The translations under genes and the position numbers were made by a program. 32,000 nt of DNA, taken from positions 2,070,001 through 2,102,000 of the forward strand of contig NZ_CP042905.2 in assembly GCF_008000775.2 (NCBI RefSeq), written 5' to 3'. Under the pieces are notes generated by a model, which was given only the letters and a program-made list of their open reading frames with translations, ran no database searches and was not told the origin of the DNA. The DNA comes from Promethearchaeum syntrophicum. GTDB taxonomy: Archaea > Asgardarchaeota > Lokiarchaeia > Sigyniarchaeales > Promethearchaeaceae. This document shows positions 8,234 through 23,832 of the stretch, piece by piece. Position 1 is the stretch's first letter. Every line of letters begins with the position of its first letter.

Positions 8234-8271
8234 ACTGATGTAAAAACTAATAAATACACATTAAAACAGAT

Positions 8272-8691
8272 TTATTCTAAATATTTTATTACTAATTCCC
8301 TAAATTCTTTAATCTGCAAGGGTTTTGATATATAATCATTAAAACCTGAATTTAAAATTCGTTCTTTATCTCCTTTCATTGCAAATGAAGTTACAGCCAT
8401 AATTGGTGTTTTTTTATATTTTTCCAGCTTTCGAATTTCTTTGCAAATATCAATCCCGCTCATATCAGGTAGCTGAATATCTAAAATAATAACATCAATA
8501 TTGTTACTTGCTATTGATTGAAGCCCTTCTTTTCCGGTAATAGATGTTAATATATTTAAATTAGGAATAGTTCCTAATACTGCTTTAAATAATTCCATGT
8601 TTTTTTCATTGTCTTCCACAATGAATATTTGTTTTTCTTCTGTCATACTTCGTTCCTTCAATTCGAACAAAATTGCCATTATTTCAAACAA
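8272..8691 (-). CDS. Single-domain CheY-like response regulator receiver
   Basis: IFIVEDNEKN...VIILDIQLPDMSG...TPIMAVTSFAMKGD...DYISKPL gives the acidic pocket, phospho-acceptor Asp, and conserved T/S and K. The likely true start is the internal MTEEKQ at 8646. Confidence 0.9.
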   Translation of the reverse strand: MFEIMAILFELKERSMTEEKQIFIVEDNEKNMELFKAVLGTIPNLNILTSITGKEGLQSIASNNIDVIILDIQLPDMSGIDICKEIRKLEKYKKTPIMAVTSFAMKGDKERILNSGFNDYISKPLQIKEFRELVIKYLE

Positions 8692-8973
8692 TAACGAATT
8701 TATAATGTTCTTGATCGTAAAAATATATCTTTAGAATTATATACAATAATGTGAAATCTATTAAATTTTTTGAGAAACTTAAAAAATACTTTTCTATTGT
8801 AATAATTCAATACCACTTATTTATCATTTCAATGAAAAATAAAATTTTAATTAATTTTTTTGAAGTGTTATAAGAAATCGAATAATAATATAAGTAAACG
8901 GAACTATTTTTTAACTTGATTCCTTAAAAAGGATAAGTAAAAGAAAAACGCTAGTTAAAGAAAACGATCGAAA

Positions 8974-9354
8974 ATGAGAACCAAAAAAGTTTACATAGTT
9001 GAAGATAATCCACTAAATATTGAACTTTATTTAGCAATTCTTAACCAAATTGAAAATATAGAAGTTTTTGTAGAAAAACAAGGTGATAAAGGATTAAATC
9101 TTATTAAATTAGGAGATCCTGATTTATGCATATTAGATTACGATATTCCTGTTCTAAATGGAGTTAAAATCTGTAAAGAACTTAGAAAAATCGAAAAATT
9201 TCAAAAAATACCAATTATTGTAATATCTTCATCCCCTATTAAGGGAAATAAAGATGATATATTTCGAGAAGCTGGTTTTGATAAATGGTTCGAAAAACCT
9301 TTGAATGTTAAGGAATTTAAAAATAACATTACAAATTTGTTGTTTCAAAATTGA
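8974..9354 (+). CDS. Single-domain CheY-like receiver (divergent paralog), upstream of and co-directional with a Rag-like GTPase gene
   Basis: VYIVEDNPLN...LCILDYDIPVLNG...IPIIVISSSPIKGN...WFEKPL. This is the receiver fold signature but is clearly more divergent than the three other receivers in the window. Confidence 0.8.
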   Translation: MRTKKVYIVEDNPLNIELYLAILNQIENIEVFVEKQGDKGLNLIKLGDPDLCILDYDIPVLNGVKICKELRKIEKFQKIPIIVISSSPIKGNKDDIFREAGFDKWFEKPLNVKEFKNNITNLLFQN

Positions 9355-9574
9355 AATCCATGAAGAGCATGCAAATTTATAGTATCTATAATCAGAACAT
9401 TTTTAGAAGAGATTTCTTAAAATTTTTAGTTTTTCTACATGAATAATCCAAATGCCTAATAGAACTCTTAGATTACTTTTCAAAACCTCCTAATTTATAT
9501 ATATCAAAATTATTAGGTTACCAAATCGATCATTAGATATATCACCTAAACAAAGTAAAACATTAAGGATAATT

Positions 9575-11077
9575 ATGAGTAAAAAAATTGTTTTTACGGG
9601 ACCACCGAAAGTTGGGAAAACTACTCTTCGAAAAATCTTTTTTGAAGGCGAAAATCCATCAAAACTGTTAGAGTATTCCTTAACACCCACACATGGTCAA
9701 GAATCCATCCTCCTAAATTTAAAAGAGAAGGTGGGTGTTTTTGATTTAGCAGGTCAAGAAAATCAACGGTGGTATGAAACAGAAGCAAAATCAGTATTCT
9801 TTGATACACAAATTATTATTGTGGTGTTAGATAGTTCATCTCCTAAAGAAGAAATCGTGAAATTTACTAAAAAAGTATTAAAATTAAGAGATGAAATAAC
9901 GCCTTCTTCATTTGTTTATTTACTCCTCCATAAAATTGACTTAATCTCAAAAGATAAATTAAAAATAATAAAAGATAAGGTCAACGATGAGTTTCAGGAT
10001 GTGAATTTATTAGAAATCGCTTATACAAGTATTATGAAATATTCATTTTTACCAACTTTTACATTATTTACAGAGATATTAAAGTTAAGCTTAGGAATTA
10101 AAAAAGATGAAAATGAAAAATATAGTCTTAAATTTCTTGAATATGTAGTAAGTATATTAAATATTATCGATCAAAATGTGGTAATCCCAAAAGAAGATAT
10201 AAAGAGAGATTTGAAACTTCCTGATAAAATTTTCAATAATTTTATTGAATATTTAGAGAAAATGGAGTTTTTAGAAGCTTCAAAATTAAATAAAAAACCT
10301 GTGATATCATTAACTAAGGCTGGTAAAAATTATATTAATGAAATAGTAGGAAAATTCTCTATAGAATCCATACAGAATTTCAAAAACAATATAGAAGAAT
10401 CAAAATTTGAGGAAATTCCTTCGTTCTTAGGATTTTTAATTGCGGATAGGAATGGAAGAACCATCTCGGCTACTGAAGTATATGAAGGAGCTTTTGGTTT
10501 ATTTTTAAAGTATAATGATGAGGTAGAAAAAGGAAATGAACTGGATTTAATTCCTATGTTTATCAGTGCATTAGAAAAGTTTGCGGAAGAAATTAATATA
10601 ATGGATTTACCAGGCTTTAAATTAGAAGGTTCAAATCTCAAAATTCATACAATAAAATATGATATTTGCACACTCTGCCTCTTTATGAGAAATGATGTTA
10701 ATTTCAATTCTGTTAAAAAAGAAGTATTTGCCTGGTTTGATAATTTGATGGAAACCTATCAAGATAAATTAAAACAGAGTATTGAAAGTGGAAACATGGT
10801 TTATTCTAGTAGTCTGCATAGTGAAGCTAAGAAATGGTTAGAGCAAATGAACAAAAACTATGACGATTTGCTGATAAATTTAAAAATCTATAATTTTGAA
10901 CATGTAAAGAAACTGTATCAGAAATTAGATGAGCTTTATTTAAAAATTGATTTTAAATATTCAATGATTCTGGAAAAATTAAAAAAGTTGAAAATAAATT
11001 TGATGGAATCTGCAATGGATAATAATTTTCAAAGTTTTAAAGATATCGTAAAGAAAATAAAAGAATTAGATTCTTAA
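9575..11077 (+). CDS. Rag/Gtr1-like small GTPase fused to a putative winged-helix, a roadblock/LC7-like domain and a C-terminal coiled coil
   Basis: G1 GPPKVGKTT, G3 FDLAGQE and G4 variant HKID (the HKxD form typical of Rag/Gtr1). The wHTH-like part is PKEDIKRDLKLPDKIFNNFIEYLEKMEFLEAS..ISLTKAGKNY. The roadblock-like part is FLGFLIADRNGRTISATEV...LIPMFISALEKFAEEI...LEGSNLKIHTIKYDICTLCLFM. The tail is heptad-rich. Confidence 0.75.
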   Translation: MSKKIVFTGPPKVGKTTLRKIFFEGENPSKLLEYSLTPTHGQESILLNLKEKVGVFDLAGQENQRWYETEAKSVFFDTQIIIVVLDSSSPKEEIVKFTKKVLKLRDEITPSSFVYLLLHKIDLISKDKLKIIKDKVNDEFQDVNLLEIAYTSIMKYSFLPTFTLFTEILKLSLGIKKDENEKYSLKFLEYVVSILNIIDQNVVIPKEDIKRDLKLPDKIFNNFIEYLEKMEFLEASKLNKKPVISLTKAGKNYINEIVGKFSIESIQNFKNNIEESKFEEIPSFLGFLIADRNGRTISATEVYEGAFGLFLKYNDEVEKGNELDLIPMFISALEKFAEEINIMDLPGFKLEGSNLKIHTIKYDICTLCLFMRNDVNFNSVKKEVFAWFDNLMETYQDKLKQSIESGNMVYSSSLHSEAKKWLEQMNKNYDDLLINLKIYNFEHVKKLYQKLDELYLKIDFKYSMILEKLKKLKINLMESAMDNNFQSFKDIVKKIKELDS

Positions 11078-11182
11078 TTTTGTTTTACTATGATTCTTAA
11101 TTTATTAAGAAATTCTGATTCGATTTTTTATCAATTTAACTAGCATACAGAAAATTTTCTCCATTCATCTGAAAAACAAAAA

Positions 11183-12319
11183 TTAACGTTTTAAATAAAT
11201 CGACACAATATCTCCATCTTCTAAATTATGGTCTGTTTGTATAAATTTTTGCCCTGGATGTTTGGCAGATTTTCCCCAGACTAATGCATATCGGTAGTTA
11301 ATTAAGAACCTTTTGTGCAGTTTCAAGCAAAGCTTTTTAATATTATCTCCTTTATGAAGAATGATAGGTTCACTCATATCAACCTCTTTTTGAGGGGGTT
11401 TTAGGTAAACACGGATTAATTCCAGCTCTTGAAAAATTTGATGTCGTAATTTATCAATATTTTCTTTATTCAGAGCTGAAATTTTGACCCAATGATTGTG
11501 CCCGATTTTGTTTGTGATTTCTTCATCTTTTATTTTCTTTTTTGCTAAATCTTTTTTGTTTATAACTACAAATTCCTTTGTATAGATTCGATTTCCCATT
11601 ATATGGTCAATCAGCTGATCTGGAGTTACATGAGGTTCAGAAAAATATACACTTGCGTTGCTAAAACCCATTTCATTTAGAATTCCCTTTACTTCTTCCC
11701 GATCCATATCTTGATGTCCATTATATGTAAATCCAATTCCACCACGATTTGTCTTTGTTATCTGAATTCTGGGGGGTTTTTCATTTAAACGCATTCCTGC
11801 ATTAAAAAGTTCTTGTCTTATAGTTGTAAGGTGGGAAAATTCAATGGACCCATCTGGAAGAAAACAAATCAAATTTAAAATCAAATCAGCACTACGAACC
11901 GCACCGAGAATTTCTCTCCCTCTCCCTTTTCCACTTGCTGCTCCAAGAATAATACCAGGTAGATCGATCAGCTGTATTTTTGCTTCTTCTATATCCATCA
12001 TTCCAGGAATCGCTGTTAATGTGGTGAAATCATAAGATGCAACTTTTGAATCTGTATTTCCTCTTGTAAGAAGGTTAAGTAGAGAAGATTTCCCTACTGA
12101 TGGAAATCCAATAAACGCTACTTGGGAATCTCCCGTTTTCTTAACCCCAAATCCAGAACCTCCTCCTTTTTTGGAAGTTGCAATTTTGATGAGGTCATTT
12201 CGGAGCTTTGCAATTTGTGCTTTCGTATAATTTATTGCTTTCTGCGTAGCTTTATTTTTTTGAGTGCGACTAAGCCGTTCTTCAAAATCCCGAATTTTCT
12301 CTTCTATTTTTTCACTAAT
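11183..12319 (-). CDS. drg: DRG-family (developmentally regulated GTP-binding protein, Obg-like) GTPase with C-terminal TGS domain; proposed non-canonical ATT start
   Basis: The track ORF (11183-12001) begins at MMDIEEAKIQLIDLPG, which is the G3 motif. My translation shows the same frame stays open upstream to 12325. That stretch encodes ISEKIEEKIRDFEERLSRTQKNKATQKAINYTKAQIAKLRNDL...VAFIGFPSVGKSSLLNLLT, the DRG N-terminal helix plus the G1 P-loop. The TGS-like C-terminus is IRVYLKPP...GDIVSIYLKR. There is no ATG/GTG/TTG between the in-frame TGA (12326-12328) and 12001. Confidence 0.8.
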   Translation of the reverse strand: MSEKIEEKIRDFEERLSRTQKNKATQKAINYTKAQIAKLRNDLIKIATSKKGGGSGFGVKKTGDSQVAFIGFPSVGKSSLLNLLTRGNTDSKVASYDFTTLTAIPGMMDIEEAKIQLIDLPGIILGAASGKGRGREILGAVRSADLILNLICFLPDGSIEFSHLTTIRQELFNAGMRLNEKPPRIQITKTNRGGIGFTYNGHQDMDREEVKGILNEMGFSNASVYFSEPHVTPDQLIDHIMGNRIYTKEFVVINKKDLAKKKIKDEEITNKIGHNHWVKISALNKENIDKLRHQIFQELELIRVYLKPPQKEVDMSEPIILHKGDNIKKLCLKLHKRFLINYRYALVWGKSAKHPGQKFIQTDHNLEDGDIVSIYLKR

Positions 12320-12325
12320 TTTTTG

Positions 12326-12334
12326 TCACACTCC
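12326..12334 (-). promoter_or_regulatory. Shine-Dalgarno-like element GGAGTGTGA, 6 nt upstream of the proposed ATT start of the DRG gene
   Basis: The minus strand reads GGAGTGTGA-CAAAAA-ATT AGT GAA. The purine-rich element resembles the GGAGGTGA core complementary to the archaeal 16S 3' end. Confidence 0.35.
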
Positions 12335-12534
12335 AAATTTAAAACCAAGAAAGAAAATTGATTAAGAGCAAAAAATTTTTCGAAAAACAAAAATATCGTG
12401 ATAGCAGCAATGAAATTAGTGAATGAAACAAGGGAATATAATTAATTTATCATAAAGGTTACAGAATGAAAAATTAATTCTATGAAAAAAATTCGGTGGA
12501 TTGAATGTTATTTTTAGATTTTTAGAATATGAAT

Positions 12535-12930
12535 TTAAGATGTAATAGATGTTATTTCAATTTCTAATAATCTTTGAATTTTCTTTCTGAACTCGATTAT
12601 ATTTAATGGTTTTGATATATAATCACTAAATCCTGAATCTACTATTCTTTCTTTATCTCCTTTCATCGCAAATGAGGTTACAGCGATAATTGGTGTGCTC
12701 TTAAACTTGTCCATCTTCCGAATTTCTTCACAAATTTCTGTTCCATTAATTCCTGGAAGTTGAATATCTAGAAGAATAATATCCGGATCTTCGGATTTAA
12801 TTAATTCAAGGCCGTCTATTCCATTCTCCTTGGTTAAAATTTCTAGATTCGGGATCATTCCTAAAACGGCTTTGAATAACTCCAAATTTTTTTTATTATC
12901 TTCAACAATAATGATTTTTTTCAAATTCAT
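12535..12930 (-). CDS. Single-domain CheY-like response regulator receiver
   Basis: KIIIVEDNKKN...IILLDIQLPGING...TPIIAVTSFAMKGDKERIVDSGFSDYISKPL. It is a close paralog of the receivers at 8272 and 19696 and is transcribed divergently from the GTPase gene at 13182. Confidence 0.9.
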   Translation of the reverse strand: MNLKKIIIVEDNKKNLELFKAVLGMIPNLEILTKENGIDGLELIKSEDPDIILLDIQLPGINGTEICEEIRKMDKFKSTPIIAVTSFAMKGDKERIVDSGFSDYISKPLNIIEFRKKIQRLLEIEITSITS

Positions 12931-13181: not shown

Positions 13182-14471
13182 ATGCCCAAAGGAATCGTTC
13201 TAGTTGGATGGGATAATAAAATGGGATCTACAATTGAGGTGAAATTCCCAAAGGATTATCAAATCCAAAATAAAAAAATAACTCAGTATTTGGTAACTCT
13301 ACAAACTTTCGGAAGAAGTTCAAATATTCAAATTCGAGATAATGAGGATATAATTTTAATTTTTGGTTATCCGGTAAGAGAAGGGCCTGCAAATTATGAC
13401 TTTATTATTGTAATTCTGGATAGTTTAGAGGAATCCGAAATTCCAAAAATTCAAAGTAAACTAAATCTTGAAGGAGGAAATATTTTAAAAACTCCCAAAC
13501 CTAAAAGATCAAAATTATTCCTGGATTTTGCAGGAAATTTCATCAAACAGGAACAAAAGAAAATAGTTTTTATGGGATATCCGAATTCAGGGAAAACTAC
13601 AACAAAATTATTCTTTTTTGAGAAGATTCAGAGTGAGAAACTTTTAGAAACTACATTTACGCCCACAAAAGGAATTGAAACGGATCGGTATAGTTTAATT
13701 GATTCGAATATTGCATTATTTGATACTTCTGGCCAAGAAATTGAAAGATGGTTTAACATAGATGAAACTCCTTTAATTGGTTCTGACCTAACAATTTTCT
13801 TTATAACAGCAATGGATTGGAAACGAAACCCAGAGAAGGTAAAAAATGATTTAAATAGACTTATTCAACTCTCTGAAAAACTTGATGAGTCTGATCACGA
13901 TTTAGTTCTATTCTGCCATAAATTTGATGAAATTACTGAGAATATAGAAGAATTTAAAATAAGTCTTATAGATTTCACTCAAACGTTAGATATCTCTGTA
14001 TTTTTCACTTCAATTAAAGATACGGGGAATTTTGATATTTATATTGGTTATCAACTCATGTTGAGAAAATTCTCACCACTATTTGCTTTTATAAATAATT
14101 CACTCAATCCACTTATGAGCAGGTATCAACAAAGCGGAAATCTCCTATTTATTCTCGATTCTGATTTCACTCTAATCACAGATTTTACTCATAGCATTGA
14201 GGATTTTGATGTGGCGAACATCCAACAGTTTAAAAGTACTACAATCAAAATGATGAAAATTATTAATTTAGATGATAATAAATCTAGTGATTTCATTACT
14301 TTTACTTACGAATCAAGTGCTAAAATAGTCGTTTGTTTAAGAATATCTAAATTTAATCCCGATTTTTCTTATGTTATAATGCAAGCTGATTCATATCAAC
14401 TTGTGGATGAAATCTATAAGGAATATAATAAAATGAAAGAGAATTTTACGTGGGTAGAGCATAATAATTAA
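13182..14471 (+). CDS. Three-part small GTPase: N-terminal longin/uDENN-like domain, Rag/Gtr1-like G domain, C-terminal roadblock-like domain
   Basis: The N-terminal ~100 aa (GIVLVGWDNKMGSTIEVKFP...DFIIVILDSLEESEIPKIQ) have an alpha/beta regulatory-domain pattern. The G domain has G1 GYPNSGKTT, G3 FDTSGQE and G4 variant HKFD. The C-terminal part is GNLLFILDSDFTLITDF...KIVVCLRIS. Confidence 0.7.
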   Translation: MPKGIVLVGWDNKMGSTIEVKFPKDYQIQNKKITQYLVTLQTFGRSSNIQIRDNEDIILIFGYPVREGPANYDFIIVILDSLEESEIPKIQSKLNLEGGNILKTPKPKRSKLFLDFAGNFIKQEQKKIVFMGYPNSGKTTTKLFFFEKIQSEKLLETTFTPTKGIETDRYSLIDSNIALFDTSGQEIERWFNIDETPLIGSDLTIFFITAMDWKRNPEKVKNDLNRLIQLSEKLDESDHDLVLFCHKFDEITENIEEFKISLIDFTQTLDISVFFTSIKDTGNFDIYIGYQLMLRKFSPLFAFINNSLNPLMSRYQQSGNLLFILDSDFTLITDFTHSIEDFDVANIQQFKSTTIKMMKIINLDDNKSSDFITFTYESSAKIVVCLRISKFNPDFSYVIMQADSYQLVDEIYKEYNKMKENFTWVEHNN

Positions 14472-14481
14472 AATAACTCTC

Positions 14482-14513
14482 TTTTTTTTTTAAAAAAAAT
14501 TTTATAAAAAAAA
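14482..14513. terminator. Bidirectional oligo-T/oligo-A tract in the 45-bp gap between convergent GTPase genes
   Basis: A T10 run (14482-14491) is followed by two A8 runs, which read as T8 on the minus strand. Oligo-T tracts are the established archaeal termination signal. Confidence 0.5.
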
Positions 14514-14516
14514 GGT

Positions 14517-15668
14517 TTATTCAGTTAAATTTCTTAATTTAAACACTTTTCTCAGTTCTGACATTACATCATTTCTATTCGGTTTAACTTTTTGTTGCAC
14601 TTTTTTCTTTGGTGGGGGAGGAGGAGGTTGAACTATTTGTTTATTTGATGATTTCACTTCAATATTTTTTGTACTTGGAATTTTTCCTAGATTCGATCCT
14701 CCAATTATACCTTTTAATTCTTGAAATTGATTCATTATTGAACTATTTAACTTAATTACCATTTCTGAAAGAATTGAAACTTGTTCTTCTAAATTTTTTG
14801 CAATTTTATCTGGACCGAAAAATTGCTTAAAGGATTTTGCAAATTCGGGCTCATTTGCATAGAAATTATAAATACTCGATTGAATTAATTCAAAACTAAA
14901 TTTCTTCTCATTAAGCGATGTTGAGATTATTTCAGAGATCATTTCTAAATTAATTTGAAAATCTACTTCTTGACGTATATCAGGATCTGATTTATGTAAG
15001 AGTACTAATACATATGGATTTTCTTTGAAATAACTCACTATATCTAGAATTTTATCAAAATATTCTATTGATTCATCAAAACGTTCCGAATCTTGGATAT
15101 CTATAACATAGATAATTAAATCGATATGTAAGAAAAATTCTTCTGGATTTTTTAAATAATCCTGCCTGTGGAATTCTTGTCCACCGAAATCCCATATCGT
15201 TAAATTAAAATTTTCAACTTCAATTTTTTGAATGTCCACTCCTTTTGTAGGAGGAAGATTAGTTATATCGCCAAATTTTGTTTTTCCTTTTAAGCTTTCA
15301 AGCATGGATGTTTTTCCTGCGTTATTAAGACCCAAAACTATTATTTTTTGCTTGGATTTTTTTAAATAAAGTGATCTTTTTTTCCATGCTCTTGATAATA
15401 ATTCAGCTGTTAAAATCCATTTTTCGAATAGTTCTTCACTAATACTAGTTTCTTTTGCAATTTTTTTAATTTTTTCAGATTTTAATTTTACAAAATCTCT
15501 AATTTGGGTGATTTTGTATTTTTTAAGTTTCTCTCCATATTCATTCTTGCATTCTTTTAAAACGCTTGGATTCATATTCAAAATTTCTGAAAAAGAATTT
15601 GGTGTTTTTTCAACAACAAGAAATTTCTTACAAAAAATATCGATTATTTTTTCTTTATCTGTTGACAT
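14517..15668 (-). CDS. Arf/Rag-like small GTPase with N-terminal extension, C-terminal coiled coil, poly-proline tract and WH2-like tail
   Basis: G1 GLNNAGKTS (Arf-like GLDxAGKT), G3 WDFGGQE and G4 variant HKSD. The C-terminus is ...QPPPPPPKKKVQQKVKPNRNDVMSELRKVFKLRNLTE. Confidence 0.8.
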   Translation of the reverse strand: MSTDKEKIIDIFCKKFLVVEKTPNSFSEILNMNPSVLKECKNEYGEKLKKYKITQIRDFVKLKSEKIKKIAKETSISEELFEKWILTAELLSRAWKKRSLYLKKSKQKIIVLGLNNAGKTSMLESLKGKTKFGDITNLPPTKGVDIQKIEVENFNLTIWDFGGQEFHRQDYLKNPEEFFLHIDLIIYVIDIQDSERFDESIEYFDKILDIVSYFKENPYVLVLLHKSDPDIRQEVDFQINLEMISEIISTSLNEKKFSFELIQSSIYNFYANEPEFAKSFKQFFGPDKIAKNLEEQVSILSEMVIKLNSSIMNQFQELKGIIGGSNLGKIPSTKNIEVKSSNKQIVQPPPPPPKKKVQQKVKPNRNDVMSELRKVFKLRNLTE

Positions 15669-15746: not shown

Positions 15747-18700
15747 CTAAATTAATTTCTTGGGTAATGTAAATGAAAAGGATGAACCTTCACCCAATAC
15801 ACTGGTAAATGTGATATGTCCTCCGTGAAGTTCAATTAACTTTTTTGTCAACATCAACCCCAATCCAGTTCCTTCAATAGATTCCACATAATCTGATTCA
15901 ACTCTCTTAAATTCTTGAAAAATAATTCCAAAATCCTCTGGTGCAATCCCAATTCCAGTATCAATTATTTTAAATTTCCAATTCTTTTCATCTTCCATAA
16001 AATCTAATTTTATTCCGCCTTTTTCAGTATATTTGATAGCATTACTTAAGAGATTTAGAAGTATTTCTTTAAACCTTATCGGATCTGCATTAATAATTGT
16101 GCCTTTTTCAAACCCAACTAACTCAAAATTCAATCCTTTTTTTTTATAAAGTGGTTTTACTTCGATTTCAATTTGAGAAACCAAATTCAATAAATCAAAA
16201 TCTCTGTACTTTAATTCTACTTTTCCTGCTTCTATTTTTGAAATATCTAAAATATCATTTATTAGATTTAATAAGTGTTCTGCCGATGTTCTGACGTTAT
16301 TAAGATAATGATCTTGTTTTTCGTTCACATCTCCATAGAATTTCTCAATCAAAATATCTGTAAAGCCAATGATACTATTTAATGGAGTTCTTAGTTCATG
16401 AGACATTGATGCCATAAAATCAGATTTAAATTGGGAAGATTTAATAAGTTGATCTTGATATTGTTTTTGCTGCTCTAATGATTCAGTAACATCACGAGAA
16501 ATCGAGGAAATTCCAACAATATCTCCCTTTAAATCTAAAATTGGGGAAATTGTCACATTAACACTTAATACCTTTCCATCTTTTCTAAGACGTTTAGTTT
16601 CAAACAATTTGTAGGATTCACCTTGAACAACTTTTTCTATTAAGTTGGGAATCTCTTCCATGCGATCAGGTGGAATCAACATGCTTATTGATTTTTCTAA
16701 AACTTCCTCCAATGCATAACCATATATTCTTTCAGCACCCTTATTCCATGATTTAATCATTCCCTCTTTATCCATGCTTACAATCGAATCTGATGAAGTT
16801 CCAACAATACTTGCTAATCTCTTCGTTTCTAATTTATATTCTATACTGATTATTCCTAATTTAATTCGTGTTAAAATTTCTTTTAATAATCTTTTTTCTT
16901 CATCTAAAAATTCCTTATTAATTTCATAAACTACCTCAATTTTCAATGGAATATCATTAATTTTATCAGAAATGGTTAATTTCCATTCGGATTCTTTAAA
17001 ACTTGTTGTTTGGGCTTGATTTTCTCCATAAATTATTTTTACCATAGTTATTTCTGGATATTGCCATGATGAACGAATCAGAGGTAGAACTCCATAGAGC
17101 AATTCCTTGATGGTAATGTCTGGTACAACTAAAAGACTGGAAATTCCATATAAACATTTTAATCCTTTAATCCTGACTTGAAGCATTAATTCGGATTCCA
17201 AAATTTGTTTTTCTTTTTTTTTCCGGTCAGTAATATCTTCAAATATTTCTAAAAGTGCCGGTTTTCCATTGAAATTTTCAATTTTTGTGGAACTAATCTC
17301 AAAATCTCGTTCTTCGTCAAATTTTGACAAAAATAATTTGTCCTCAAATTTTAAAGATTTAATATTCTGACTGAGTGATTTGTTTCTCAGTGGACACATA
17401 TCATCACATGGTTGCTCTCTGCCTCTTAAAATTTTATAACATATCTTCCCGTCAAGAATTCCGTCATATATTTTAGAAGAGCTTCTATTATGGAATAAAA
17501 TTTCATAATCTTCAGATATTACAAAAACGGGATAATTTAGAGTATTTAATATAATATTTAATTGATTTTTTGAATTTTCCAGCTCCCTAGTCCTTAATTC
17601 TACCTTTTGATCTAAATCCAAATTTAAATTTCGTAATCTGAATTCTGTTTCCTTTAATTTATTCTCCCGTGATTTACTTTCAGTAATATTTCTGACAAAA
17701 ACAGCAATTTTATTCTCATCATAGAAAAACAATCTCGCCTCAAAAATTTCAATTATCTCATTTTGTTGTTTTAAAGGAAATTCAACTACCTGTGGTTTTT
17801 TTGTTTTAAATACTTCTAAAGATTTTTCTTCAATCAATTTTGAAATCTTATTTGGAAAACCAATAAAAAGATCTTTTCCCAATAAATTATCTAAAGGAAC
17901 GTGAAGTAAATTTTTATCTCCGTGAAATTCCAAGACATCTCCCTTTTTAGAGAGTAATAAAAATAAATCAGGAATAGCTTGAAAAATGGTTGTAAATTTT
18001 TTAAGTGAATTTCTTAAATTTTTCTCATTTTTTTTCTGAATCTTATAATAACGCATTTTTGCGATTCCTAAGGAGAGATTATTCACCATTTTTGATATTA
18101 ATTCCACATCATCTTCATCGAATGTGTTTTTATTTCCTGAATATATGCCTAACACACCAATTACAATATTCTCTATAATGATTGGGATTGAAATTGATGA
18201 TAGAAAACCTGATCCATCGAAAACAGTTTTCCAATTTTTAAATTTTTTTTCTGCACTTAAATCGTTAATAATATAATTTTTTCTTGTTCTTATCGCTGTT
18301 CCGCTAGGACTTTGATCTTTTACAGATTCGGACCATGTAAATTTCAATTTTTTTCCATCATATTTAGAATTATCAAAGATATTATATCCAGCTAAAGCAA
18401 CTGGTTTTATTGATTTTTCTTCATCATATTGGACTAACCCAATCCAACAAAATTGGTAATTTTTAAATTGAATAATCTCTTCACAAAATTCTTGAAACAT
18501 TCCCATTTCATTTTTTGCATTTGAAATTAGAAAGTTAGTTTGACCTTGAATAAAGGTTAATTTCTCAATCTTTCTCTGTCGCGTTATGTCAGTTCCTAAG
18601 CTAAGAACACCTTCAATATTCCCTTTTTTATTATATACATTAGAATTATGCCATCTAATGATTTTTTCTAATCCTTTTTTAGTTTGTACAGCATTTTCAA

Positions 18701-18932
18701 AATAATCTACTTCTTTTTCACCATTTATCACCTTATTAAAAACTCTCTCCATTTCTTCCCTTTTAGAATGAGGAATACAAGTTTTGAACCAATTTTTACC
18801 CAATATTTCATTTTCTCTATATCCAAGTATTTTGTTACCCTTTACGTTAATATAAAGTATTTTCCCTTTTCTATCTAATTGTAGAACTATCGCATCAATA
18901 ATGTTCAAATATTTTCTATCGTTTCCAATCAT
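15747..18932 (-). CDS. Cytoplasmic multi-sensor histidine kinase (PAS-GAF-PAS-PAS-uncharacterised module-PAS-HisKA-HATPase_c)
   Basis: 1061 aa with no TM segments. It has PAS-like blocks, a GAF-like block (FCWIGLVQYDE...IGVLGIYSG), H-box SHELRTPLNSIIGF, N-box LLSNAIKYT, DTGIGI and GTGLGLM. Confidence 0.9.
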   Translation of the reverse strand: MIGNDRKYLNIIDAIVLQLDRKGKILYINVKGNKILGYRENEILGKNWFKTCIPHSKREEMERVFNKVINGEKEVDYFENAVQTKKGLEKIIRWHNSNVYNKKGNIEGVLSLGTDITRQRKIEKLTFIQGQTNFLISNAKNEMGMFQEFCEEIIQFKNYQFCWIGLVQYDEEKSIKPVALAGYNIFDNSKYDGKKLKFTWSESVKDQSPSGTAIRTRKNYIINDLSAEKKFKNWKTVFDGSGFLSSISIPIIIENIVIGVLGIYSGNKNTFDEDDVELISKMVNNLSLGIAKMRYYKIQKKNEKNLRNSLKKFTTIFQAIPDLFLLLSKKGDVLEFHGDKNLLHVPLDNLLGKDLFIGFPNKISKLIEEKSLEVFKTKKPQVVEFPLKQQNEIIEIFEARLFFYDENKIAVFVRNITESKSRENKLKETEFRLRNLNLDLDQKVELRTRELENSKNQLNIILNTLNYPVFVISEDYEILFHNRSSSKIYDGILDGKICYKILRGREQPCDDMCPLRNKSLSQNIKSLKFEDKLFLSKFDEERDFEISSTKIENFNGKPALLEIFEDITDRKKKEKQILESELMLQVRIKGLKCLYGISSLLVVPDITIKELLYGVLPLIRSSWQYPEITMVKIIYGENQAQTTSFKESEWKLTISDKINDIPLKIEVVYEINKEFLDEEKRLLKEILTRIKLGIISIEYKLETKRLASIVGTSSDSIVSMDKEGMIKSWNKGAERIYGYALEEVLEKSISMLIPPDRMEEIPNLIEKVVQGESYKLFETKRLRKDGKVLSVNVTISPILDLKGDIVGISSISRDVTESLEQQKQYQDQLIKSSQFKSDFMASMSHELRTPLNSIIGFTDILIEKFYGDVNEKQDHYLNNVRTSAEHLLNLINDILDISKIEAGKVELKYRDFDLLNLVSQIEIEVKPLYKKKGLNFELVGFEKGTIINADPIRFKEILLNLLSNAIKYTEKGGIKLDFMEDEKNWKFKIIDTGIGIAPEDFGIIFQEFKRVESDYVESIEGTGLGLMLTKKLIELHGGHITFTSVLGEGSSFSFTLPKKLI

Positions 18933-18983
18933 AAGTTTGCTACCTTATCTAGTAGTTAAAAAAAGAAGTATATATCATATATA

Positions 18984-19616
18984 TTACTTCATGCCTTCTG
19001 GTGAAAACATATTATTTAACACATTTTCTATCTCTTTAGCGGATTCTCTCATCATTTTAATATAATTTAAAAAATCTCCTTCTGAAATTTCAGTTTTTTG
19101 TTCTATGATTAAATCACAAAATCCTAAAATCGTGTTAACTTCGCCTCTAATTTTAACATTAAAAGATTCTAAAGGCACTAAATATTCCTTATTCATAAAC
19201 ATTGAATGAATTTTAACAAAAAAATCCAAAAATGCAGCATTATCATCAGTTAAAATTCGTTTGGTTCCAATCTTTCGAAATAATTCTTCAATTTGCTGAA
19301 AAATAAATGTAGATATCACTGGTAATTCTGCATCTCTTAAAAATATTAAAGCATAAGATTGTTTTCCTCCTCTTGCACTTGCATCTTCCACTTCTATTTT
19401 GCAAACTTGAGAATAAAATTTCTTATAATCTAAATAAACATATTTATTAGTTGTATTCAACGAATCTCGAAGTAAATCTCTGATGAAATCTTCATCTTTA
19501 ATATCGATTGATGAATAAAGAGATGTAGGACCTAAGATCTGGTCATATTTTCCAATAATTAATAAAAATTGCTCTTTATCTAGCCATTTTTTGAAATTGC
19601 TGTATTTTTCCGACAT
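18984..19616 (-). CDS. Longin/roadblock-like domain protein with a C-terminal His-less DHp (HisKA-like) helix pair
   Basis: The N-terminal part is FLLIIGKYDQILGPTSLY...SYALIFLRDAELPVISTFIFQQIEELF. The C-terminal NVKIRGEVNTILGFCDLIIEQKTEISEGDFLNYIKMMRESAKEIENVLNNMF aligns by eye to MSHELRTPLNSIIGFTDILIEKFYGDVNEKQDHYLNNVRTSAEHLLNLINDIL of the adjacent kinase, with Val at the phospho-His position. Confidence 0.55.
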   Translation of the reverse strand: MSEKYSNFKKWLDKEQFLLIIGKYDQILGPTSLYSSIDIKDEDFIRDLLRDSLNTTNKYVYLDYKKFYSQVCKIEVEDASARGGKQSYALIFLRDAELPVISTFIFQQIEELFRKIGTKRILTDDNAAFLDFFVKIHSMFMNKEYLVPLESFNVKIRGEVNTILGFCDLIIEQKTEISEGDFLNYIKMMRESAKEIENVLNNMFSPEGMK

Positions 19617-19695
19617 TTTAACGCCATGAATTTTTTATTAAATAATTTAAGAAGAATATTTTTAAAAATAAAATTCTCCAAAATAGGAGATCCGT

Positions 19696-20091
19696 TCATA
19701 TCCTTAATAAGTTTTGAATTTTCTCTCTAAAATTTTTAATAAGTAATGGCTTTGATATATAATCATTAAAGCCAGATTCTAATATTCGTTCCTTATCTCC
19801 TTTCATAGCAAATGAAGTTACAGCAATAATAGGAGTTTTATTAAATTTTTTATCTTTTCGAAGTTGTTTACAAATATCTGTTCCACTTATATCGGGAAGT
19901 TGAATATCTAATAAAATTATATCTGGATTACTTGAATATATTAAATTAAGACCATCTCTGCCAGTAGCTGAGGTTAGAATTTCTAAATTTGGGATAGTCG
20001 CTAAAACTGCTACAAATAATTCCAGATTTTTTTCATTATCTTCGATGATATATATTTTCTTCTTCAAATTATTTCCTCCATTTTCATGCAC
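19696..20091 (-). CDS. Single-domain CheY-like response regulator receiver (first gene of a 4-gene co-directional array)
   Basis: KIYIIEDNEKN...IILLDIQLPDISG...TPIIAVTSFAMKGDKERILESGFNDYISKPL. An alternative TTG start sits after an internal GGAGGA (..AATGGAGGAAATAATTTG..). Confidence 0.9.
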   Translation of the reverse strand: MHENGGNNLKKKIYIIEDNEKNLELFVAVLATIPNLEILTSATGRDGLNLIYSSNPDIILLDIQLPDISGTDICKQLRKDKKFNKTPIIAVTSFAMKGDKERILESGFNDYISKPLLIKNFREKIQNLLRI

Positions 20092-20621
20092 AAAAACTCC
20101 TTTGTAATTTTACTTAAAATTGTTATTAATGCAAACCGTAGAAATGAGATTTTTAACTTTCTTTCTATTTGGTTTGATTATTTTTCTTAATTAAGAACCT
20201 GTTCATTTCTTCTATACGATGTTTCATTAGGGCAATATCCGAAAATTTTGTCTTTTCTACCTTAAAATTCATCCCTTTGTTTTGTGTTGAATCGAGCATT
20301 ATAAATTCATATTTTAATGTGTTTAAGTATGTAAATTATATTCCAAAATCCTTATAAAAATTTGGAATTTAATATAATAATATATTTTTGGGTTAATTTC
20401 AATTTATTACCTAAAATTGAAAAAAAAATTTATTTAAATCATAATTTGGAGAAAAATGTTATCCTAATTTGTGTTCTAAAAGCAAATGAGATATATTTAC
20501 TGAAAATCTTAAGTAATATAAGAATTCAATTTATTTTTTTCTATTGAGAAAATGAGAAAAAAAATCATTTTTATATAAAGGTTTAAATTTTTTTCTTACC
20601 CTATATAATTAACACAAAATT

Positions 20622-20627
20622 AGGAGA
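20622..20627 (+). promoter_or_regulatory. Shine-Dalgarno-like AGGAGA, 7 nt upstream of ATG 20635
   Basis: The sequence is ttAGGAGAtgatacaATG. A TTTATATA TATA-like box lies at 20570-20577. Confidence 0.35.
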
Positions 20628-20634
20628 TGATACA

Positions 20635-21021
20635 ATGGAAAAAAAACAAACAATTCGGAAAATTATTTTTTTAAGTATGCTTTTACTAAATCTTTTTGTA
20701 ATTTCTATAGCGGTTAGTGAAAATTCGGAAACAATTTTAGATTTTCGAGATGATTTAACTAGTAATTTTGACTCAACTACAATTCAAAAAGAAGAAAATG
20801 GTGGCGGTGGACCGCAGAGTGTCCCAGAGGATTATATGATCATAATCCAAAAAGAAGACAATGGTGGTGGTGGACCGCAGAGTATCCTAGATGACTATTT
20901 GATCTTAATCCAAAAAGAAGACAATGGTGGTGGTGGACCGCAGAGTGTCCCAGAGAATAATTTGATCATAATTCAAAAAGAAGATAATGGTGGCGGTGGT
21001 CCACAATTAATTGAAATTTAA
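20635..21021 (+). CDS. Small secreted protein with four tandem 21-aa IQKE[ED]NGGGGPQ repeats
   Basis: The N-terminal signal-like segment is KIIFLSMLLLNLFVISIAVSE. It is followed by IQKEENGGGGPQSVPEDYMII / IQKEDNGGGGPQSILDDYLIL / IQKEDNGGGGPQSVPENNLII / IQKEDNGGGGPQLIEI. Confidence 0.75.
   Translation: MEKKQTIRKIIFLSMLLLNLFVISIAVSENSETILDFRDDLTSNFDSTTIQKEENGGGGPQSVPEDYMIIIQKEDNGGGGPQSILDDYLILIQKEDNGGGGPQSVPENNLIIIQKEDNGGGGPQLIEI
20782..21006 (+). repeat. In-frame 63-nt tandem repeat, about 3.6 copies
   Basis: The units attcaaaaagaaga[ac]aatggtgg[ct]ggtggaccgcagagt... recur at a 63-nt period within the CDS at 20635-21021. Confidence 0.85.
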
Positions 21022-21028
21022 TCATAAG

Positions 21029-21039
21029 TTTTTTTTTTT
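21029..21039 (+). terminator. T11 oligo-T tract right after the repeat-protein stop codon
   Basis: The sequence is taatcataagTTTTTTTTTTT. Oligo-T is the archaeal terminator signal. Confidence 0.45.
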
Positions 21040-21043
21040 AATA
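21036..21043 (+). promoter_or_regulatory. TATA-like box TTTTAATA, about 26 nt upstream of ATG 21065 (implies a leaderless transcript)
   Basis: ttttaatatatatataggattttatacgaATG. The spacing from box centre to ATG matches the archaeal TATA-to-TSS distance, and no SD is present. Confidence 0.3.
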
Positions 21044-21064
21044 TATATATAGGATTTTATACGA

Positions 21065-22195
21065 ATGTCAAAAAATACTTATCTAAAAAACTTGAATCAA
21101 CAAGAACTTCGAATTTTGATGGAAATTCAAGAACATCCCTTAGCCACTTATGATGAATTAGCTCAAATTTCAAAATTTCCAAAGACTCAAGTATATCGGT
21201 TAGTTAAAAAATTAGAAGATCCATCTTTAAAACCCCCATATTTTAAAATTGTTACAGTTCCAGATCTTCAAAATTTGGGATTAAATCATCTGGAAGTTCT
21301 TGTTGAAACTGAGACTATATACCAATTAGATAAATGTAAACTACTTTGTGAAGAGCATCCTTATATATGGTATTATTCCAAATGTTTTGGTAAAATTAAT
21401 GGTATGTATGTTCAATTTCGAATACCCCTTGGTAAAAACGACAAAATTAATGAATTATTCAATTTAATGAAAGCACGCGGTTGGATTAAGAATTTTGAAT
21501 TGATACACTTTCATACTGAATCGATTTTAACTAAACCAGAAGTAAAAAATTGGAATTTTGATACTTTATCATGGAATTTCAATTGGAAAGATTGGCTAAA
21601 ACTTGCTGTTCCACAAAAAATGTACCCCAAAACCTTAAAAAAACACACCTTTGAAGATATTAGGAAATGGCTTCAGAGAAGAGATATTGCAATTCTTGCT
21701 GAATTATTAAGAAATGTAAGAAGAAAAAACAACACAATGATTCAGTTTTTGAAGGTCAGGGGATTTGACTTAACCCCTCAAATATTTAGTCGTAGGTTAA
21801 AAAATATTCGTAAATATCTAGTTAAAGATTATAGGACTGAAATTCACAGTGAGACTTTCGATTTGCTTTTTTCAATTCTGATTTTTGGTTATGGAGATAA
21901 ATTTAAATTGGAAGAAATTCGTAATCGTATTATTTCCAATCCCATTCCCTATTATTCCACTGTTAAAATAGATGATTATAAGATTTTTTGGTATTTACAT
22001 ATTTCTTTGGTAAATTTATCTGATCTTCTAGAATATTTTCAACCATTACTTCATAATCTGCAGTTTTATTATATAGATTCCCCTAAATCTAAAACTTTTT
22101 TACCTGATTATACAACTTTTAATGAAGAAAAAAAGGAATGGGTCCAGAATGATGAATTTCTAATTCAAGATGTGTTAAAAAAATTAGAGTCTTAA
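21065..22195 (+). CDS. Putative transcriptional regulator with two Lrp/AsnC-type winged-helix-like units
   Basis: Unit 1 is LNQQELRILMEIQEHPLATYDELAQISKFPKTQVYRLVKKLED, followed by a FKIVTVPDLQNLGLNHLEVLVE effector-like strand. A second similar unit is RRDIAILAELLRNVRRKNNTMIQFL..TPQIFSRRLKNIRKYLVKDY. Confidence 0.5.
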   Translation: MSKNTYLKNLNQQELRILMEIQEHPLATYDELAQISKFPKTQVYRLVKKLEDPSLKPPYFKIVTVPDLQNLGLNHLEVLVETETIYQLDKCKLLCEEHPYIWYYSKCFGKINGMYVQFRIPLGKNDKINELFNLMKARGWIKNFELIHFHTESILTKPEVKNWNFDTLSWNFNWKDWLKLAVPQKMYPKTLKKHTFEDIRKWLQRRDIAILAELLRNVRRKNNTMIQFLKVRGFDLTPQIFSRRLKNIRKYLVKDYRTEIHSETFDLLFSILIFGYGDKFKLEEIRNRIISNPIPYYSTVKIDDYKIFWYLHISLVNLSDLLEYFQPLLHNLQFYYIDSPKSKTFLPDYTTFNEEKKEWVQNDEFLIQDVLKKLES

Positions 22196-22315
22196 GAAAT
22201 CAACAACAGACATTCATATTAAGTAAAAAATATTAAAGATTCTGATAATTGAAATTGAGAAATCCATTTTAATATTAATATAAGTGTTAATGTAAATTTA
22301 AAAAAGAAAGAAGAT

Positions 22316-23470
22316 TTAATCCGAAATTTTCTTTGTTTCGTCCCCTTGTATTCTTTGGGTCGCGCTAGCATCATTCTTGATCGTTTGCTCGGTGATTTCT
22401 TCAGCTTGAGAAAACAAGTTCGCATACTGTTTATTGATTTGTGGATTGATTCTATGATTTGAGCTATCATTACTAAAATTAACTCCAATTTCCTTGGTTG
22501 CTTGCATGCCTTTATCAAAATCGAATTGAATTTTAAGTAGTTCATTGTTTTCTTCAAGTTTAAGCTTATCTCCGTCAAGATTTTGCCTTAATTTAAGTAA
22601 AATTTGATATGTATCTCCCGCTTCAAAGGCTCTCAACCAAGTTTTATAACGATATTCTTTGAATTTTCCTCGAATTTTTTCGAATGGCATTCTTATAACC
22701 GTGGGTTTGTATTGGACAGCGTCATCAACTTCGATTTGCCCCATCACCGGTATTATTGTAATACTTGGAGAGGAGAAAACAATTTTTGTAGCTTGATCGC
22801 TCGCAATTACCATTTTTGTTTTCAATTCATCAGCATTTTCTGCAAAAATATATTTTCCTGTGCTTTGCTTTGCAATTTCATAAAGTAGATATACATTATG
22901 ATCTCCCAATGCTCCAACTGTATCAATTGATGCTCTATATTCAAGTGCTTCACGGGCAAGCATGAAATATTTTTCATAGTTTTTATCATCTTTATTCCCT
23001 AACTCAACAGTAACATCCCCAGGTTCACCATCAGTAATCAAAATAATTTTCTTTGTTAGGTTTCCATTATAATTTTTCATCACTTTAATACCGTGTTTTA
23101 GGGCGTCGAATAATGCCGTTCCACCGCTGGCCCGTATCTTTTTGATATGATCAATAATTTTTTGTCTTGATTTTATAGTTATGGTTTCATTTCTAATAAT
23201 GGTCTTCAATGTGGATTCAAAAATTACCAGGTTAAAACCGGTTTCCAAAGGTAAACTCTTTACTTGCTCAATCAGTGATTCTTTGGCTTTTTTTATCCTT
23301 GAACCCGCCATTGATCCAGAAACATCTAATAACCAAACTCCCCAATATGGCTTTGAATCGGTTGTCCTCTCTGGTAGGATTTTGATGTCTAAACTCATTG
23401 AAAGTGTGTCTGTTGGTGGAACGCAATTAACTGATTGGTTGATTCCTATATATGGTATTTTCTCTGACAT
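22316..23470 (-). CDS. von Willebrand factor type A (vWA) domain protein with intact MIDAS motif and an unassigned C-terminal domain
   Basis: It has the MIDAS motif LLDVSGSMAG, then GGTALFDAL and ILITDGEPGD. The C-terminal ~170 aa are unassigned. Confidence 0.8.
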   Translation of the reverse strand: MSEKIPYIGINQSVNCVPPTDTLSMSLDIKILPERTTDSKPYWGVWLLDVSGSMAGSRIKKAKESLIEQVKSLPLETGFNLVIFESTLKTIIRNETITIKSRQKIIDHIKKIRASGGTALFDALKHGIKVMKNYNGNLTKKIILITDGEPGDVTVELGNKDDKNYEKYFMLAREALEYRASIDTVGALGDHNVYLLYEIAKQSTGKYIFAENADELKTKMVIASDQATKIVFSSPSITIIPVMGQIEVDDAVQYKPTVIRMPFEKIRGKFKEYRYKTWLRAFEAGDTYQILLKLRQNLDGDKLKLEENNELLKIQFDFDKGMQATKEIGVNFSNDSSNHRINPQINKQYANLFSQAEEITEQTIKNDASATQRIQGDETKKISD

Positions 23471-23832
23471 TTTATTTCCCTTATAAAGTATCTATTTTTT
23501 TTAACGAAAGAACATTATTAATTTTTCAATGATACAATGAAAAACTGTGAGAATAAAAATATGATGAATCAAGGAAAAACCAATTATCTAAGGAAAATTT
23601 CTGAATCAAATAATATCATGACAAGGCTCAAGCCATAAATTCTTAATTCTATTCTTTTAATAAAATTTTTCTCTTATTATCTTTAAACTCCGTTTTATTG
23701 AAATACTTAAACATTTGAGAATAAAACAAGGGATTTAATGGTAAATTTCTTAGTATTCTAAGGTATTGTATTTAATTTTACAGATTTATATGGTTTTTTA
23801 ATTTTTTATTACTTTTTGAAAAAAATTCAGAA

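Follow-up and report, generated by a model that had tools for sequence, protein, structure and literature searches.

A Conserved Modular Tail with the Layout of an Actin-Regulator Tail on an Arf/Rag-Like GTPase of Promethearchaeum syntrophicum

Domain Architecture of the GTPase

The window analyzed here is a stretch of 32,000 nucleotides (nt) from the Asgard archaeon Promethearchaeum syntrophicum (NZ_CP042905.2, positions 2,070,001 to 2,102,000), and all coordinates below count from its first nucleotide. The gene under study lies on the minus strand (14517-15668, with the stop codon at 14517-14519) and specifies a multidomain Arf/Rag-like small GTPase of 383 amino acids (aa), as judged from its open reading frame (ORF), NCBI identity, and Pfam and fold matches. 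The protein is 100% identical to that listed by NCBI as 'ADP-ribosylation factor-like protein' of P. syntrophicum (strain MK-D1). The original prediction, made from the sequence alone, held that this GTPase terminates in a polyproline tract followed by a WH2-like, actin-binding motif. Its reading of the last 37 residues is correct: 14517-14630 on the minus strand translates to QPPPPPPKKKVQQKVKPNRNDVMSELRKVFKLRNLTE followed by the stop codon. The interval that was assigned to these residues ended at 14627 and is one codon short because this position is the first base of the first proline codon; the 37 residues occupy 14520-14630. The view that the tail shares a chain with an Arf/Rag-like GTPase of an Asgard archaeon also is sound as Pfam, fold comparison and NCBI identity agree.

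The GTPase domain spans residues 105-270 (14859-15356, minus strand, as are all features of this gene) and is recognized by intact G motifs, Pfam matches, and PDB matches in both sequence and fold. The Pfam Arf (8e-24) and Gtr1_RagA (4e-22) families matched residues 99-268, and both were matched by 44/44 of the aligned family members. The G1 (GLNNAGKT, residues 113-120), G3 (WDFGGQ, 159-164) and G4 (HKSD, 225-228) motifs and the switch-I residue T141 are invariant or nearly so, as expected of an Arf/Rag-like member of the Ras superfamily. The invariant columns of the G domain in the 44-sequence alignment are K108, G113, A117, G118, K119, P140, T141, W159, D160, G162, G163, K226 and D228. The closest folds were LokiRagO (8yl2), a Lokiarchaeal RagA-like GTPase that was the best match, Gtr1, and Arl2/Arl3. 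A monomer model of the MK-D1 protein was built with AlphaFold2 (AF2) on the same family alignment. In the model the N-terminus (residues 1-100; 15369-15668) is a folded, all-helical domain with predicted local distance difference test (pLDDT) values of ~80-93, and not a single amphipathic helix as in eukaryote-type Arf. The domain is family-specific and conserved in the 44-sequence alignment, and possibly is helix-hairpin-helix-like; when isolated, it produced a weak match to DUF4332 (E 0.004), a family that was detected in 2/44 members. Membership of the Asgard-only 'ArfL' group of GTPases (bioRxiv 10.1101/2024.02.28.582541) is more likely for this protein than a place in eukaryote-type Arf proper.

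The GTPase domain is followed by a helical segment (residues 273-324; 14697-14852) in which AF2 places helices at 273-284 and 293-324 with low confidence. The subsequent linker (residues 325-364; 14577-14696) is predicted to be disordered, with pLDDT values of 35-48 and no secondary structure, and is so variable in length and sequence among the 44 proteins that it is unalignable. The linker holds a hexaproline run, evident from the translation, at residues 348-353 (14610-14627), and a basic stretch, KKKVQQKVK, at residues 354-362 (14583-14609). The chain closes with a conserved amphipathic basic helix, RNDVMSELRKVFKLRNLTE (residues 365-383; 14520-14576), of which residues 365-378 are helical in the AF2 model with pLDDT values of 62-72. 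The hexaproline run is located 11 residues upstream of the conserved arginine in this helix.

Conservation and Distribution of the Terminal Helix

The original prediction made conservation in orthologs a test of the tail, and the tail proved to be conserved. The motif is present near the C-terminus of 117 of the 120 best homologs (31-100% identity), the remaining three being truncated sequences. A family consensus, R-x-x-[VI]-[LM]-[SDNK]-E-L-[KR]-x-[LMV]-F-x-K-[RK], ends 168 distinct homologs from metagenome-assembled genomes (MAGs) labeled Loki-, Thor-, Hermod- and Hodarchaeota, and the corresponding consensus peptide is SLRSSIMGELKELFKKRR. Genomic loci from other Asgard MAGs also were collected. 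Among 80 such loci from species-representative genomes (MAG labels Promethearchaeota, Promethearchaeia, Thor-, Hermod- and Hodarchaeota), the motif was identified in at least 67. L372 never varies, and E371 rarely does, in the 44-sequence alignment, which comprises proteins of 31-82% identity to the query. The logo of 83 distinct tails reads R(76)-x-x-[V40 I33]-[L48 M24]-[S D K N]-E(78)-L(83)-[K58 R14]-x-[L55 M13 V12]-F(73)-x-K(63)-[R41 K33]; thus, the arginine at position -3 is found in 76/83 tails, E4 in 78/83 with aspartate in the other five, L5 in 83/83, and F9 in 73/83. Judged from the alignments, conservation at this residue-by-residue level beside an unalignable linker is typical of a docking motif and not of a mere amphipathic surface. 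A chance origin in the low-complexity background of a K/L/N-rich proteome is refuted because the motif is conserved in the 168 homologs across Asgard MAGs and in a family of stand-alone proteins that is described below. These comparisons show that the tail is genuine, conserved and under selection.

The distribution of the tail was examined by an exhaustive search in which a 33-position tail profile was compared with 1.84 billion cluster representatives, yielding 28 matches at E<=1e-3. The carriers comprised this GTPase family, its fragments, and the stand-alone module proteins, and otherwise only doubtful hits. Among the latter, P0121, P0129, P0137 and P0144 were judged to be spurious as their scores sum over internal repeats. 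Two further proteins, in which the tail is fused to a thioredoxin-like N-terminus (P0124) or to a cytochrome-c-like N-terminus with a signal peptide (P0139), probably are chimeric assemblies and were not accepted as new architectures. P0129 (L086, 278-1303), which derives from marine metagenomic data of Tara Oceans, probably is eukaryotic. Its C-terminus matches CCDC53, a WASH-complex subunit, with 26.9 bits, and 'NRAALLSELKSSRP', which is similar to the archaeal helix, is repeated in it ~5 times in tandem. Individual repeats score only 3-12 bits and the WH2 hidden Markov model (HMM) finds nothing in the protein, which was rejected as a bridge between the archaeal tail and WH2 and is noted as a curiosity. 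No other architecture bearing the tail was found among the ORFs neighboring the family genes, where the best non-family protein scored 5 bits compared to 15-34 bits for the family. Rows of four to five paralogous small-GTPase genes are present at loci L007 and L010, and some of these genes have degenerate tails, RKRIIEEIKDMLKTR and TLSQLKDVIIKKEKD, respectively. The module apparently is undescribed: in the literature searched on Asgard GTPases, a C-terminal module is absent, and N-terminal amphipathic helices, longin and roadblock domains are described instead.

The Proline Run and Its Spacing from the Helix

The hexaproline sequence is the sole run of at least three prolines in the 23 ORFs of the window (9161 aa; G+C ~28%), and the persistence of a run of CCN codons in a genome of this composition was counted against a chance origin. 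A proline tract just before the helix, as originally described, holds for several clades and for all stand-alone proteins that are complete (30/30), but not for most of the fused homologs: a run of at least four prolines occurs in only ~20% of the 168 distinct sequences. The upstream run that an actin-delivery unit of the WASP/VASP type would need across orthologs is found in the MK-D1 clade, where it is P5-P6, in this minority of fused homologs, and throughout the complete stand-alone proteins. The largest clade, whose members have 416 aa, possesses at most 'PP' and no proline run. Where a run is present in fused homologs it is separated from the conserved arginine by 10-27 residues, and by 10-20 in all but one; in the stand-alone proteins the separation from the helix is 11-27 residues, mostly 16. 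The subtype of the tail covaries with the run, tails of the form [IV][MI]SELK accompanying runs and VL[DN]ELK their absence (29/4 vs. 16/119; Fisher P 6e-17, uncorrected for phylogeny).

A Family of Stand-Alone Module Proteins

When the stand-alone protein P0136 was used as a query, 33 clusters were retrieved. The complete proteins are 128-162 aa in length and derive from Lokiarchaeia/Promethearchaeota MAGs, on contigs of up to 355 kb. They share a plan that consists of an N-terminal 'M-A-D-E-F-x-x-x-L' helix, a long helix, a proline core, and a terminal helix. 'PG-APPPP-PGAP' shows little or no variation within the alignment, the typical run being 'PGAPPPPPGAP', and a run of at least five prolines is present in each of the 30 complete proteins listed. 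The terminal motif is 'NP-I-S-L-R-S-S-I-M-G-E-L-K-E-L-F-K-K-R-R'. AF2 modeling of a stand-alone protein predicted a helix of 57 residues (17-73, pLDDT 90-98), a disordered proline linker, and a terminal helix (pLDDT 72-81). Comparison of the family profile with the PDB retrieved only generic coiled coils, many of them trimeric.

The stand-alone and fused families were compared with hhalign, which covered residues 275-383 of the MK-D1 protein with a probability of 99% (E 6.6e-18). The homology extends over the whole post-GTPase region, in which the segment at residues 273-324 corresponds to the long coiled-coil helix of the stand-alone proteins, and this region therefore constitutes an autonomous module that is present in cis on the GTPase. 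The stand-alone proteins preserve the same invariant residues without a GTPase, and the sole target of the helix therefore cannot be a docking site within its own chain, in either the N-terminal domain or the G domain. The stand-alone genes are genuinely separate genes: those at L081-L084 are preceded by a spacer of ~200 nt and a divergent upstream gene, that at L088 has a tRNA gene upstream, and one stand-alone protein was seen on six independent contigs. Locus L087 has tandem stand-alone genes (20-529 and 658-1083), the second of which specifies a protein of 141 aa that has a P7 run and in which the helix occurs twice, as SVLDELREKF and LIIDELRELTKE. Thus, the tail helix can be duplicated.

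Relationship of the Tail to WH2

Membership of the WH2 family was assessed alongside a positive control that comprised eight eukaryotic peptides of 24 aa (WASP, two from N-WASP, WAVE1, WAVE2, WIP, MIM and verprolin). The PF02205 search that was recommended originally did not bear out the assignment: 0/44 tails were matched at E<=10 compared to 8/8 controls (best E 2e-13), and neither the MK-D1 tail alone nor the full protein produced a match to this family. The control peptides recovered 2a3z, 2a40, 2a41, 2d1k and 3m3n from the PDB, in which the tail profile found no WH2-containing chain at E<=10. A local WH2 HMM assigned -3.1 bits to the MK-D1 tail, the 95th percentile of shuffled family proteins being 0.7 bits. 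Alignment of the tail and WH2 profiles with hhalign gave a probability of only 12%, in exactly the register first proposed, with the tail aligned to the LLxxI of WH2. The score of this alignment (12.6) was reached by 2/200 column-shuffled WH2 profiles (null 6.8 +/- 1.9; empirical P ~0.01). WH2 was the best-scoring of six motif classes, the five comparators (membrane-targeting helices, the WASP C-helix, thymosin type, MIM1 and DAD) being sets of sequences entered by hand. The ESCRT-III MIM1 motif, (D/E)xxLxxRLxxL(K/R), was rejected as the conserved glutamate of the tail sits at the arginine position and the hhalign score (8.7) is in the null range. The formin DAD also was discarded: its pattern does not fit, and its score likewise was in the null range and the weakest of the six classes.

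The resemblance to WH2 is confined to the first half of the motif. The helix contains the hydrophobic pair, two intervening residues and hydrophobic residue that characterize the N-terminal amphipathic helix of WH2, [VI][LM]-x-E-L is conserved, and AF2 predicts helical structure at 365-378, so that the helix and its register stand from the original description whereas family membership does not. The equation of LRNL with LKKV applies to the MK-D1 clade only: position 11 is leucine in 8/83 distinct tails and lysine in 63/83, and the LKK[TV] half is not conserved family-wide. The invariant glycine of WH2 is replaced by a conserved hydrophobic residue, position 8 being L, M or V but never glycine, and several family members end directly after the basic cluster. 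The frequency of the pattern by chance, which also had been raised as a check, gave a divided answer. A loose WH2 pattern was expected 6.6 times per 9161 shuffled aa and was observed twice; the strict WAVE-register pattern was expected 0.01 times, which extrapolates to about one per proteome by chance. In view of these frequencies a lone match to WAVE proves nothing, and it is conservation that carries the case.

The tail could be an evolutionary homolog of eukaryotic WH2 that was passed from Asgard archaea to eukaryotes, in keeping with the fit of its register to R-x-x-hydrophobic-L-[DSN]-x-[LI]-[KR] in WASP, WAVE and WIP, with the empirical P-value against shuffled WH2 profiles, and with the upstream proline run in the MK-D1 clade. 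Nevertheless, the Pfam, HMM, PDB and hhalign results effectively refute a true PF02205 member, and LKK[TV] and the glycine are unconserved. Motifs this short carry no phylogenetic signal, and homology is very unlikely. What remains is a weak, pattern-level resemblance to the first half of WH2 in a tail that, by these profile comparisons, is not a member of the family.

Candidate Partners and Roles of the Tail

The conserved arginine, glutamate-leucine pair, phenylalanine and basic pair, their retention in stand-alone proteins, the disordered tether, and the potentially oligomerizing helix together argue for a tethered docking peptide whose partner is in trans, and we consider that the tail probably acts in this manner. 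In such a mechanism, the last ~110 residues would comprise an autonomous effector module that consists of a coiled-coil-like helix, a flexible linker, and a short, strongly conserved amphipathic basic helix; this helix would fit into a hydrophobic groove on its separate partner. MK-D1 and the stand-alone proteins all belong to the proline-run subtype, for which an invariant run at a fixed distance suggests a two-part binding site: the prolines 10-20 residues upstream of the helix would engage a second site in the complex that the helix binds. The constrained spacing, the covariation of run and tail subtype, and the weak WH2 resemblance were counted in favor of this mechanism. Multivalency would come from the coiled coil, and the GTPase would supply a switch on the same chain, the nucleotide state of which may gate access to the tail. 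The partner could be a Lokiactin monomer or profilin-actin, with the module as a functional analog, and not a detectable homolog, of a polyproline and WH2/GAB unit.

To our knowledge, profilins and gelsolins are the sole Asgard actin regulators characterized so far, profilin is the sole polyproline-binding fold reported in Asgard archaea, and profilin-actin is the sole known class of partner for polyproline combined with an amphipathic basic helix. For the latter two reasons actin or profilin-actin is the leading single candidate for the partner; direct tests were negative or silent and the assignment is doubtful. Cultured Asgard cells display dynamic actin-based protrusions and crawling, and a WH2-like LKDV motif is present in the two-domain gelsolins of Asgard archaea (bioRxiv 10.1101/2025.11.30.690169). 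Neither a nucleator, an elongation factor nor an upstream switch for Asgard actin is reported in the literature searched. Co-immunoprecipitation with Lokiactin in Lokiarchaeum ossiferum enriched an 'Arf' GTPase, UYP48373.1, of 38.1 kDa (log2 1.34, adjusted P 0.009; bioRxiv 10.1101/2025.11.30.690169). The Heimdall LC3 profilin and one Thor profilin bind polyproline weakly, with Kd values of 0.25-0.5 mM (PMC8410842).

Several observations weigh against actin as the partner. The WH2 searches with Pfam, the HMM and the PDB all were negative, and the LKK[TV] half of the motif is not conserved across the family. Most fused homologs (~80%) lack the proline run. No actin, profilin or gelsolin gene was recognized at the 80 loci, in which recurrent clusters were annotated, or in the contexts of the stand-alone genes. 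UYP48373.1 is not among the top 120 homologs or at the 80 loci, L. ossiferum is not represented among these loci, no hit has its mass, and it is smaller than typical family members, which are 43-56 kDa; its link to the tail family is circumstantial. The Loki-1, Loki-2 and Odin profilins are described, in a passage of PMC8410842 that cites Akil and Robinson (2018), as not binding VASP polyproline. Moreover, the physicochemical properties of the tail, which are considered next, suit lipid binding.

The linker and cationic helix might instead be the counterpart of the hypervariable region and polybasic anchor of Ras/Rho proteins or of the MinD/FtsA helix, with the coiled coil adding avidity and the GTPase acting at the membrane, a role that we regard as rather improbable. 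The tail helix is cationic and amphipathic, and its hydrophobic moment is high: the net charge is +2 to +4 (median +3), the median hydrophobic moment is 0.32 (z +3), and the Heliquest-type D value of 1.25 is in the 'possible lipid-binding' range and close to those of the Arf1 N-terminal helix and MinD. Such physicochemistry cannot separate lipid from protein binders as WH2 motifs, membrane-targeting sequences and the tails overlap. Membrane binding through amphipathic helices is documented for Arf-related GTPases of Asgard archaea (PMC11914678; bioRxiv 10.1101/2024.02.28.582541). Membrane-targeting helices were second best in the hhalign comparison with a score of 10.8, obtained with a small set of sequences, and in most family members just 4-13 residues separate the motif from the C-terminal end; several, however, have 36-51 residues after the motif. 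Known membrane-targeting helices conserve amphipathicity and not sequence, whereas the tail has a near-invariant E4 at the edge of its hydrophobic face and R(-3), L5 and F9 are near-invariant too, features that would speak against lipid binding as the only role. Anchorage also leaves unexplained the invariant 'PGAPPPPPGAP' and the constrained spacing in the stand-alone family.

An autoregulatory or regulatory target is not favored by the stand-alone proteins, which keep the invariant residues although they possess neither the G domain nor the N-terminal domain in cis. In this case the helix would bind a roadblock/MglB-like or longin/folliculin-like GTPase-activating protein (GAP) or guanine nucleotide exchange factor (GEF), a paralogous GTPase, or the N-terminal or G domain of its own chain, and would work like the formin DAD or like an Arf helix that is freed on GTP binding. 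Gene order lends this role some weight: in the window and at L001, L002, L035 and L055, the neighbors of family genes include other small GTPases and a longin protein that is folliculin-like, and the stand-alone gene at L081 is between Ras/Roc-like and roadblock/MglB-like genes. However, roadblock and GTPase neighbors are unconserved at L091-L093. An amphipathic helix succeeded by a basic cluster resembles DAD-type autoinhibitory peptides, but the DAD set ranked last of the six in the hhalign comparison. The moderate pLDDT values of the tail helix (62-72) in the full-length model provide no sign of firm docking within the predicted structure. Docking to a regulator appears fairly unlikely as the principal function.

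Overall, an effector module carried in cis whose tethered helix docks on a partner, with actin or profilin-actin in the lead, is the best single explanation, which we advance tentatively. The more specific possibility that the module is a minimal Asgard actin-assembly factor of the VASP/WASP kind, in which an oligomerizing coiled coil, profilin-binding polyproline and a G-actin helix are combined in a free protein of 130-150 aa or fused to a GTPase, is unlikely. The tail is real, conserved and modular, and it is laid out like the tail of an actin regulator; the interpretation given in the original prediction is partly supported, and actin binding would be a guess by analogy. Nevertheless, a separable module with this grammar is a concrete and cheap hypothesis that would link an archaeal small GTPase to the cytoskeleton, and the module occurs both as a free protein and on one of the GTPase families that are expanded in Asgard archaea. 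If the tail does act on actin, GTPase control of monomer delivery would predate eukaryotes and would have begun on a single polypeptide. If the partner is a membrane, a GAP or a GEF, the module would define the localization or regulation of a large Asgard-specific GTPase family, and a family of small 'hypothetical' proteins still would be annotated.

Comparison with Known Systems

The WH2 and proline-rich regions of WASP, WAVE and WIP share with the Asgard module a short amphipathic helix of the form given above which is followed by basic residues, a polyproline run 10-20 residues upstream in the MK-D1 clade and the stand-alone family, a location at the C-terminal end of a disordered region, and a functional association with a small GTPase. 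In contrast, the Asgard tail has no significant profile similarity, conserved LKK[TV] sequence or acidic/CA region, a hydrophobic residue takes the place of the WH2 glycine, and its helix extends for one additional turn (L8, F9). The Asgard GTPase also is in cis and is Arf/Rag-like instead of Rho-like, and most fused members are without polyproline. Ena/VASP proteins combine polyproline, a WH2-like, G-actin-binding GAB and a tetramerizing coiled coil, and the minimal nucleator of the Chlamydia TARP type oligomerizes around one WH2-like helix. The same three ingredients recur in the stand-alone proteins as a long, oligomerization-type helix, an invariant 'GAPPPPPG', and a short basic amphipathic helix ~16 residues later. 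The order is reversed as the coiled coil is N-terminal, and the Asgard proteins have no EVH1 domain, F-actin-binding segment or detected sequence similarity.

The succession of folded domain, variable disordered linker and conserved C-terminal peptide also is seen in the Ras/Rho hypervariable region, the MinD/FtsA helices, and the C-terminal peptide of FtsZ. The Asgard tail differs in its conserved sequence with an invariant glutamate-leucine pair, in the proline run at fixed spacing in some members, and in the existence of the module as a separate gene. Among Asgard Arf/Rag-like GTPases ('ArfL' and RagGtr; Klinger et al., 2016; Vargova et al., 2024; LokiRagO, 8yl2), the G domain and the Asgard-only distribution are shared, but the solved structures 8yl2 and 8zla do not match the tail profile.

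Genomic Neighborhoods

The gene for the MK-D1 GTPase converges with one for a Rag/Arf-like GTPase of 429 aa that has long N- and C-terminal extensions (13182-14471, plus strand), the two being separated by a 45-nt A/T-rich spacer (14472-14516). The pairing is kept in Promethearchaeum MAGs at L001-L003 and L005, which suggests that the convergent genes form a functional GTPase pair, perhaps with the logic of a Rag-like heterodimer. The third small GTPase of the window is a Rag-like protein of 500 aa (9575-11077; Gtr1_RagA 1e-14). A protein of 210 aa (18984-19616, minus strand) produced a borderline match to the Folliculin/longin family PF11704 (23.4 bits against a cut-off of 23.3), and folliculin-like longin proteins of the same cluster are found near family genes at L001, L002, L035 and L055. 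Since eukaryotic folliculin acts as a GAP for Rag, the longin protein may be a GAP or GEF of the local GTPases. The window also specifies four receiver-only response regulators (8272-8691, 8974-9354, 12535-12930 and 19696-20091), three of which have near-identical C-termini, and three PAS histidine kinases (6179-8233, 15747-18932 and 23833-26754). The density of this signaling cluster (6179-12930 and 15747-26754) raises the prospect that the small GTPases may be wired to two-component signaling, and the signaling-type arrangement around the MK-D1 gene is kept in Promethearchaeum MAGs at L001-L003.

In the 80 loci, 648 neighboring ORFs were clustered and the recurrent clusters alone were annotated. 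Only clade-specific synteny was apparent, with housekeeping, GTPase, longin and two-component genes, and the annotated clusters included no recognizable cytoskeletal gene. The stand-alone gene at L081 is positioned between a degenerate Ras/Roc-like GTPase (1012-1974, minus strand; Roc E 8e-4), the P-loop of which appears from its sequence to have been lost, and a roadblock/MglB-like gene (2917-3306, plus strand), whose product matched 7yh1 (E 0.04) and MAPKK1_Int (E 0.008). The locus looks like a split system of GTPase, roadblock protein and module. At L091-L093 the stand-alone genes are adjacent to those for archease, RtcB, and a coiled-coil protein of ~205 aa, the assignments at L092 and L093 being by size and position only. 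The loci of the 416-aa clade (L012-L076, ~35 species) always have TFIIB and a protein of ~1240 aa upstream, and PAP2, PHP and acetyl-CoA synthetase downstream, a strongly conserved synteny; these are identities that derive from reading representative sequences without Pfam. The ~1240-aa protein has a GTPase-like N-terminus and long helical repeats. Within the window, an ORF of 128 aa on the plus strand (20635-21021) has no Pfam match and ends in two copies of 'IIQKEDNGGGGPQ'.

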